DNA of 49,831 bases, taken from UHGV virus genome UHGV-0044336; one strand, 5' to 3'. The DNA is from a virus. A program made the position numbers. Shown here piece after piece: positions 30,001 to 33,000 of the stretch (position 1 is its first letter; each line of letters begins with the position of its first letter).

Positions 30001-33000
30001 TAGGAGTAGCATTGAAGTGAACGAGGTTATGCTTGTCTTATATTATCCTCTATTTTAAAAACATCAGCTGGTTGTGTAAGAGTTTTTATTGTTTTATCTT
30101 GTTGACTTTGCTTTTATGAAAACAGAGTGATTGATACAATGAAAACCTTAAGTGGGAAAGAGTTTAGGAAATTATTTAATCGTTATGAGACAGGATTCTA
30201 TCTAAGTGAGTTTGAATACTTAAAGGACTTTGATCCTTTGTTTCCTGAATGCGTAGGGAAAGAATTAAAGTTGGGTTATAAACGAAAAGTTGATGTATGG
30301 TGCGAAGAGGATGCTGCGCTATATGCAGAATTTATAGCTACAAAAGAAAGGCTGAAAAGAGGCCGGTTAATCCTAAAAATAAACCAAGTGTGGTCGCGTG
30401 TATATCCTGCTTATATTTATGCAATTGAAGAAAGAATAAATGTCAGGGCAAAGGGGAGAGAGTCATTTAAGTATGAAACTGTGCAAGAAAAACAATGTAA
30501 ACTTTCCATAATGTTAGATGGTCTGAAAGACCTTGAATGTGAAATAGCTATGATTTCAAGTGAGTTTGAAATTGAAAAACACTCTATGCACTATTTTTAT
30601 ATGATTTTTGATATTGAACGCTATATAAATGACTGCAGTTACTTTGTTTTTTCTGCTGCTAAAGTTGTTAAAGGCGTGATTCAATGCATTGGTTACATTG
30701 ACAAAAATAACAAAGCAAGTTGCGATGAATTTTATTCAGGCAGCTATGAATGCTTGGATGATGATCAGGAAACACTGAACTATTTAAATGAATCATGCGC
30801 AGAGGGTATAGACGCTGATAAAGATCTCATCAGGAAGAATGAGTTATTAGCCTTATCCCTGAAGGAATTGTATCAACTTCTCGTTTCAAAAAAATAACAA
30901 GTAATACGGCGAGCGATATGACGTGCCATGGGATATCCGCACCCAGCAGCATGTTGTCTCCACGATGTCCGCAGTTCGCTCATAATAGACATTCACTACA
31001 GTTATAGTAGAAGGTATGCATGCTGCTGAGTGGGGAAAGTGTGAAAGAAAAGAAGACAGCTGCTTTGTTTGTCGTCACGTTTATCTTCATTGGCTATGCA
31101 AGTCGTAATACAAGGCGGGACAAAACTGAGACACATAAGGCCTCGCAATGGCTTGCAAGGCCACACATGTATTGAGATGTTAATAAAATGTAGACTTGTA
31201 ATTTTGATATAAATGGTAGAGAAAATCTTTCCCCAAAATAAAAACGAACGTCAATGAAATCAAACGGTTGAATAAAGTTGATTTTGGCTAATACAAAGAC
31301 AAGAAAATAATATTTATGATTAAATATCAGCGAGTTGAATACATAATTTTTATATACTGCTGCGCCACATGGGGTGGGTTGAAGCGGCTGACTTAATTGT
31401 TAAAGGTATGGAAGGCGCAATCAACGCGAAGACCGTAACCTATGACTTCGAACGTNNNNNNNNNNNNNNNNTGACTTCGAACGTCTGATGGAAGGCGCTA
31501 AACTGCTGAAATGTTCAGAGTTTGGTGACGCGATCATCAAGAACATGTAATCTCTACATGTGTTAAATATTGAAACGGGCGTATAACACGCCCGTTGTTT
31601 TATGATGATGTAAAATCTTCCCCAAAACTTTCCCCAAAACCCTTCCCCAAAACTGGCTATTTTCTATGCTGTTTTGATATCTACGATAATCCAGTCTTTA
31701 CCACGATCATCATTGTATCGGTCGGTCATTTTTCTGGATTTATGACCTAACAACTTTTGCGTATCCAGACCCTGTTCCCGATATAACCGTTCTGACAGAG
31801 ATCGCTGCTCATGAAATGTGGGCGCAGTTCCTGGCTCCCATTTTATGCCACATTTTTCCCTGGCCTTTTTAAAAGCCGTTGTAAGAGTATTTGCAGACAC
31901 CTGGTCTCCTCTGTTTGCTTGAGAGGTAGTGTGACGGTAATGGACCAGATATTTACTAACAACAGCATCCCTGCACTGAGATATAACTTCACGAAGGGTA
32001 ATATTCAGAGCATCGCATTTCAGGTTAAGCGGAATAGCAAGTTTTGAACCGGTTTTTTCCTGAGTAATGTGCAACATGTCGTCCCAGATATCAGAGAATT
32101 TCAAATTGCAGATATCGCCTAAACGTTGTCCAGTGACAAGAGCAAGTAGCATCCCGCATTTTAAATAGGGCTGCCGTCTGCTTACGCTGTCAAATATTGC
32201 CTGCCATTCGGGCAGTGATAATCTTTGGCGGTTTACTCGATTTCGCGGTTGTTTTGTTGCCTGCGCTGGGTTAAATCCTGGCGGAACATGTCCTGCGTGT
32301 TGTGCTTCTTTGAAGACGTCGATCAACACCATTCTCACGACTTGCGCCATCCTGTTATGACCTTCAGCCTTTACAGCATCAATTATTTCGGCAATATCAA
32401 GTGCGGTAATATCCTTGAGGTGTTGCATTCCACAATGCTCACGGAAAAGACGAATGGGTTTGCCTTTTTGCCGATAGGAGTTGGGTCTTAGTTCATTATG
32501 TTGCAGCCTGTCCTCCTGGATAGAAATATATTTATCAAGCCATTCTGTCACCGTAATGTCTGAGCGCCTGCCTTTCATTCTTTCTAGACGCTCATTGACG
32601 CTTAATATTTGTCGGGTACGTTGTTCAGCAATAATGGTATTTGCTTCAGTAGCAACTTGTTTTGCTTCATTCTCATCAGTTCCTAAGCTATGAAAACGAC
32701 CGGATAGTGGATGTTTGTATTGCCAATATACCTTTCCGGTTCGCTTATCTAATTTGCAATATAAATTGGGTATAGAGATTTTGTGAGATCGGGGTCTAGC
32801 AGCCATCAGCGATTATCCGTTGGAGTTTTGGGTTTGCGTTTATTGGGAGTTGCGGTTCTGCAAGCGTTCCTACAAAACGGGAATTTCGGTCAATCATCCA
32901 GTAGCGACCAACTTTTATAGCGGGTGGGGCCATCATTTTCCCTTGCGCGTATTTTTTCAGAACTCGCTCACTTGGTGCTAAGTCCCCAAATTCTTCTTTA

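Follow-up and report, generated by a model that had tools for sequence, protein, structure and literature searches.

The window, the whole stretch of 49,831 nucleotides analysed here, has the vegetative gene order of a lambdoid phage: lysis, terminase, head, tail, J, tail fibre, sitDCBA, att, int, xis, early genes and Q. The att stretch (31226–31655) is bordered on one side by a 256-aa ORF on the plus strand (30127–30897) and on the other by int, which lies on the minus strand at 31664–32806 with its stop codon at 31664. The int product is a tyrosine integrase of 380 aa with a lambda-type arm-DNA-binding domain at its N terminus (PF09003, 1.8e-28) and a catalytic domain (PF00589, 7.8e-24), and 376 of its 380 residues (99%) are the same as in the integrase of phage 21. 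Adjoining int is the excisionase gene xis (32796–33032, minus strand; PF07825, 6.7e-06, over the gathering score). The sitDCBA genes, encoding an iron/manganese ABC transporter (25991–29440, minus strand), are cargo between the tail-fibre genes and the attachment site, and occupy the same place in phage 21, in Escherichia phage ev017 and in the icd prophage of CFT073. We also noted a sib-like hairpin on the minus strand at 31139–31162 (-23.5 kcal/mol, z -2.8), located 3′ of int across the attachment site, and two CII-box matches within 31110–31162 (TTGCN6TTGC at 31145–31158 and TTGTN6TTGT at 31110–31123), both where the phage 21 annotation places CII sites; hairpin and boxes fit Campbell's remark on int retroregulation in that phage. 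An Rfam scan of 29400–33100 gave no match above threshold. The small RNA svsR of the related NC-SV prophage was considered and set aside, as it maps to cI and so does not lie at the attachment site.

To one side of the int stop codon lies a set of repeats. Four copies of the dodecamer YYTTCCCCAAAA are present in the 49.8 kb of the window, always on the plus strand, with starts at 31227, 31616, 31628 and 31641 (31227–31652); 0.04 copies are expected by chance, and at least four were found in 0 of 100 shuffles. Three tandem arm-type copies on the P′ side (31616–31652) mark the outer right limit of the site, and the P-arm copy (31227–31238, CTTTCCCCAAAA), an exact match to the dodecamer, marks its outer left limit. 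Read as an 11-mer, the repeat TTCCCCAAAAC is present in three copies, at 31618, 31630 and 31643, and the distal copy at 31229, TTCCCCAAAAT, has T as its final base and matches at 10 of 11 positions. The repeats are therefore where the original prediction had put them, three in tandem near the 3′ end of int and a fourth about 390 bp away. From start to start this distance is 390 bp as written and 361 bp minus a 29-bp artefact described below; with the artefact taken out, the outermost dodecamers span 397 bp. Degenerate arm sites with up to two mismatches stand at chance level in the window (63 against 57 expected) and no extra sites are claimed; a minus-strand candidate at 31282–31291 was rejected as unsupported. 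The P arm also holds a weak match to the IHF consensus at 31258–31270 (AATCAAACGGTTG, plus strand). Matches to this consensus, WATCAANNNNTTR, number three in the window against 2.2 expected, which is chance level, so that it is by position alone that this one is suggestive.

The core is separated from the P′ arm sites by a spacer of about 209 bp, which is homologous to the chromosome and consists of the 3′ end of icd and its terminator. The icd fragment (31357–31550, plus strand) encodes residues 363–416 of isocitrate dehydrogenase plus the stop codon and is interrupted by the 29-bp artefact; when translated without it, 50 of 54 residues are identical to residues 363–416 of the E. coli enzyme (E=5e-29). 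The icd remnant that had been proposed is thus present together with its terminator, and is shorter than the 65 or so codons first estimated, at 54 codons plus stop in the protein alignment. The terminator scan finds a perfect hairpin at 31574–31596, and the chromosomal homology ends within the same 28-nt stretch, 31574–31601 (AACGGGCGTATAACACGCCCGTTGTTTT, plus strand), which is common to attL and attR in the alignment of att sites. The 10-bp sequence TGCTGCGCCA (31358–31367, plus strand) lies at the opposite, left-hand edge of the stretch homologous to chromosomal icd.

A megablast search with 30900–31700 matched 42 phage records, 18 of them over the full query, and the matches include phage 21 (97.5%), ev207, Perceval, ev017 and 1H12. 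None of the phage records matched the site region at 100%. In a multiple alignment of the window with these five phages, the P and P′ arms are the same in all, including the P-arm dodecamer, and differences occur in the icd spacer only. The phage 21 record OL657228.1 annotates the triple repeat as 'attP ... 3 subsites P1P2P3; consensus YYTTCCCCAAAA' and the ORF before it as an ICDH-like pseudogene, followed by a terminator. Over the 397-bp attP, phage 21 differs from the window by 20 substitutions, every one of them in the icd spacer. Wang and co-workers (1997) reportedly found a minimal phage 21 attP of 366–418 bp with the outermost dodecamers included, a size that they are said to have attributed to a 209-bp icd-homologous segment. 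The 397-bp span falls within this range, which counts for a phage 21 attP. We therefore read the region as the attP of a lambdoid phage of the 21 type, with a genome nearly the same as that of ev017, and put the probability of this reading at roughly 90%. As a phage 21-type site with arms identical to those of phage 21 itself, it bears out the proposal of an attP built around the end of icd. The site is already known, being the phage 21 attP carried by dozens of phages of known sequence and by hundreds of genomes of E. coli; work in the 1990s had established this attP together with the icd target, the arm dodecamers and the size of the site.

Unlike these relatives, the window has a run of N inside the icd fragment, flanked by two copies of the 13-mer TGACTTCGAACGT at 31443 and 31472, the sole two copies in the window. 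This arrangement had been described correctly except for its length, as the run counts 16 N (31456–31471) and not 17. All relatives are 29 bp shorter at this point, equivalent to the 16 N and one 13-mer, and read through in frame as CCTATGACTTCGAACGTCTGATGG. The 13-mer is duplicated in none of the compared phages and genomes, and an exact-pattern scan of IMG/VR for the N-run junction gave no match. The two alleles of the icd 3′ end in ST73 lysogens have in common an exact 47-mer, GCGAAGACCGTAACCTA-TGACTTCGAACGT-CTGATGGAAGGCGCTAA, with a SNP on either side, at 31425 (C/T) and 31502 (A/G). Counting the SNP at 31425, the window's left sequence block stops precisely 31 nt away from it, and the right block starts precisely 31 nt from the SNP at 31502; unique unitigs of k=31 on the two sides of a 47-nt repeat that has collapsed overlap by 2x30-47 = 13 nt. 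When unitigs were simulated from the repaired site and a second copy with the other allele, the block ends of the window were obtained only at k=31, whereas k=25, 29, 33 and 41 led to other overlaps or extra breaks. The 31-nt distances and the 13-bp overlap point to a join of k=31 contigs, and these distances, the 29 bp absent from relatives and the k-mer simulation together identify the N-run with its 13-mers as an assembly artefact in which nothing is missing. The artefact occupies 31456–31484 (16 N, then the duplicate 13-mer at 31472–31484), and in the true sequence 31455 is followed directly by 31485. What looks like a 13-bp direct repeat is where two contigs overlap, and the scaffolder's gap estimate for them was wrongly positive. 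In our reading, a k=31 de Bruijn assembly broke at the 47-nt repeat because the sample held another copy of the icd 3′ end with the same repeat, and the scaffolder then placed 16 N between the two contigs despite their 13-bp overlap. The run can be closed by removing 29 bases, and its content is known without resequencing. The window contains a second N-run, of 92 N at 23139–23230, where CFT073, ev017 and a metagenome contig have just 10 bp (CGCCAGAAAT); these 10 bp complete a terminator-like hairpin, GGGCGCC-AGAAAT-GGCGCC-TTTTTT, between J and the tail-fibre gene, and the gap size of 92 N is a scaffolder overestimate.

To map the crossover we used a quartet built on strain ATCC 25922, consisting of attL, attR, the cured attB and the attP of ev017. 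Among the genomes of this strain the prophage is present in CP009072.1 and absent from CP037449.1, which is 50 kb smaller; the 50-kb icd prophage, near-identical to the phage of the window, has been precisely lost from this one assembly and is kept in others of the strain, a loss that speaks indirectly for Int-dependent activity of the window's site. A synthetic attB, made from the icd 5′ side of attL and the attR fragment with its downstream sequence, aligned to the cured genome as a single unbroken match of 1100 bp at 100% identity. The four sites are exact reciprocal products: the cured attB equals attL through position -1 and attR from the first base of TGCTGCGCCA, and the attP of ev017 equals attR up to TGCTGCGCCA and attL from there on. 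The first informative SNP rightward of the switch is at +10, and all 14 SNPs on that side segregate with the right-hand flank. Because the partners switch between -1 and the SNP at +10, this comparison places the crossover within the 10 bp at 31358–31367, an interval that is thus defined in silico by comparing public assemblies of a single strain in which the prophage is present or absent. Exchange at the right (terminator) end of the homology was rejected, since the cured site carries the attR allele and ev017 the attL allele at 14 of 14 SNPs.

The original prediction had expected comparison with host icd to define the core, as it does here, and had located the likely core region in the N-run, where it would escape reading. 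That location does not hold, as the crossover interval lies 89 bp upstream of the run and is sequenced in full. A core at or inside the N-run, with the 13-mers as att-type direct repeats around an unsequenced centre of attP, would explain why an exact direct repeat surrounds a gap within the icd homology, but we consider it extremely improbable: all relatives are continuous at this point with one 13-mer only, the block ends fit the k=31 overlap exactly, and the switch of the quartet at 31358–31367 leaves 14 SNPs to its right that go with the right flank.

Whether the site is an attP or lies at a junction in a chromosome can be judged from the layout of the window as a whole. From end to end the window aligns colinearly with ev017, with a total of 35 differences over 49.7 kb. 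Positions 1–31455 correspond to the right part of the CFT073 icd prophage, as far as attR, and positions 31472–49831 to its left part, starting from attL. The left flank of the site, sitDCBA and the 256-aa ORF, is the right end of the CFT073 prophage, and the right flank is int and xis. The two ends of the window fall in the same phage ompC-like porin gene and are 217 bp apart in CFT073 and ev017. These ends within one porin gene, together with the colinearity with ev017, indicate by sequence comparison that the window represents a single, almost complete ev017-like genome in circularly permuted form, with phage DNA on both flanks of the site. From its flanks we judge the site to be in the attP configuration, in agreement with the original prediction and not with an attL or attR junction, with its halves joined by a scaffold gap; the link from P arm to P′ arm in the window is the scaffolder's join, with no read-through sequence. 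The break between the window's ends lies in a porin gene that has chromosomal paralogues.

Since the join is a scaffold link, we also weighed a junction between tandem prophages or elements at chromosomal icd, or a computational join of the attR-left and attL-right parts of a lysogen. Tandem arrangements have precedents: FXCREC028 has sitABC, P arm, icd fragment, P′ arm and int in tandem, IMGVR_UViG_3300039322_000257 links a different left arm to the same fragment and P′ arm, and the k=31 signature implies at least two icd 3′ copies in the sample. We nevertheless find such a junction unlikely, as the ends of the window lie 217 bp apart in one porin gene and its 49.8 kb are colinear with a single phage genome, ev017. 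A simple join of attR-left to attL-right from an ST73-type lysogen further predicts G at 31502 and attL alleles rightward of it, which the window does not have; assembly at k=31 from a lysogen only was rejected on the same ground, the right block lacking the G allele and the other attL alleles. A tandem junction would in any case be an attP locally, with parts and function unchanged.

At about 5600–5960 of IMGVR_UViG_3300039322_000257, the left arm of another element is followed by the same icd fragment, the P′ dodecamers and a 99%-identical int, and this foreign arm indicates that in another genome the elements at icd stand in tandem or have been replaced. GenBank records of this phage group are linearised in or around attP: both termini of the PhiR63_2 record lie within the icd fragment with a 7-nt overlap, and the PhiR57_1 record is 100% identical to window positions 31664–49831 and wholly lacks 31176–31663. 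In the CFT073 prophage (1270–4052 of the extracted locus, and its attL), the P′ tandem comprises only two dodecamers instead of three, and an IS3-family element interrupts xis; this prophage is probably excision-defective.

The attP reading leaves the origin of the spacer allele to be considered. The 35 differences from ev017 include 14 at 31368–31573, within the 209-bp icd spacer, and at 14 of 14 variable positions the window carries the ST73 chromosomal allele, that of attR and the cured attB. It thereby differs from the product of Int-mediated excision in ST73, which has the attL/ev017 allele. The return to phage sequence lies in the 28-nt stretch at 31574–31601. An exact-pattern scan of IMG/VR for the P arm with the window's left spacer allele gave no match, and a metagenome scan returned attR-type contigs only, plus one contig ending at 31428. 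One explanation is that the record represents a real phage in which the whole 209-bp icd spacer has been replaced by the host chromosomal allele, an account whose chances we set a little below even; a single crossover between attL and attR in 31574–31601, and not at the Int core, would release exactly this circle. The other, which in our estimate falls just short of a coin toss, is that reads from a lysogen's attR entered the phage scaffold, so that the spacer is an assembly chimera and the true phage has the ev017/attL allele. Chimerism would account for the concentration of differences in the spacer and their complete agreement with the chromosomal allele, and the k=31 signature indicates that the other allele is also in the reads. 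The switch occurs in a stretch common to attL and attR, which a smaller k or gap-closing could cross, and no complete E. coli genome joins the window's spacer allele to this int, the best reaching 99.7%. Against a chimera, a pure k=31 graph has no common k-mer over 28 nt, so that the link from 31573 to 31602 implies real reads, and assembly of a real P-spacer-P′ molecule alongside an attB-like second copy is expected to break just once, at the 47-mer. Moreover, the icd fragment naturally linked to the P′ arm in IMGVR_UViG_3300039322_000257 is identical to the window from 31396 on, and in the alignment spacer alleles are mosaic among sequenced phages. On balance we lean slightly toward a real recombinant phage over a chimera. 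The function of attP is unaffected by which of the two is true.

Based on the anatomy of the site and the lambda and phage 21 paradigm, we propose the following course of integration. Int would act as a heterobivalent protein, its N-terminal domain binding the YYTTCCCCAAAA arm sites, one in the P arm and three in tandem in P′, and its C-terminal domains binding the core, where strand exchange with the chromosome would take place in TGCTGCGCCA, at icd codons 363–366. Bending proteins may fold the spacer of about 230 bp, for which IHF is only a candidate. Integration would exchange the end of icd for the phage copy and leave the gene intact; full-length icd is annotated at attL of the CFT073 and ATCC 25922 lysogens, where the gene is restored. 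The displaced chromosomal end would become a pseudogene at attR, and Xis is predicted to direct excision.

The biological weight of these observations is small. The site has long been known, and its one new-looking element, the N-run between 13-mers, is an artefact. Their practical value is in curation of the record: the run conceals nothing, and the core is elsewhere than feared. The spacer allele of this record is unsafe for evolutionary inference until the reads are checked. If it is a true recombinant, it would show, caught in the act, how alleles move between host icd and 21-like phages and so render the icd 3′ end mosaic in E. coli populations.

Among known systems, the element e14 of E. 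coli K-12 shares the attB core in icd and likewise supplies an alternative 165-bp icd end. Phage 21 and e14 have been described as sharing one icd site with different specificities (Campbell essay, PMC3530522). The label 'phage 21/e14-type' under which the site was first proposed accordingly stands in its first half only: an e14-type attP is ruled out, as the e14 integrase IntE is 60% identical to the window's Int and the 17.5-kb e14 locus contains no TTCCCCAAAA arm sites; in addition, the e14 int does not adjoin the icd fragment. The attP of lambda is alike in its heterobivalent Int with PF09003, in three tandem P′ sites by int, in P-arm site(s) and in Xis. It differs in its target, which is intergenic in lambda and inside a protein-coding gene here, in its arm-site consensus, and in its size, about 240 bp against about 400 bp here owing to the 209-bp gene-restoring spacer. 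Phage ev017 (NC_049948.1, Jouyvirus ev017) is 99.9% identical over the whole genome and has an equal attP architecture; its spacer allele is of the attL/phage type whereas that of the window is of the ST73 chromosomal type, and relative to ev017 the window has two N-runs and is short of 217 bp of the porin gene. Phage 21 (OL657228.1, M61865.1) shares with the window the P arm, the core, the P′ arm, the dodecamers with their spacing and the 397-bp span, as well as the spacer of icd 3′ fragment and terminator, Int (99%), Xis and the upstream sitABCD and 256-aa ORF, while the rest of the window genome is nearer to ev017 than to phage 21.
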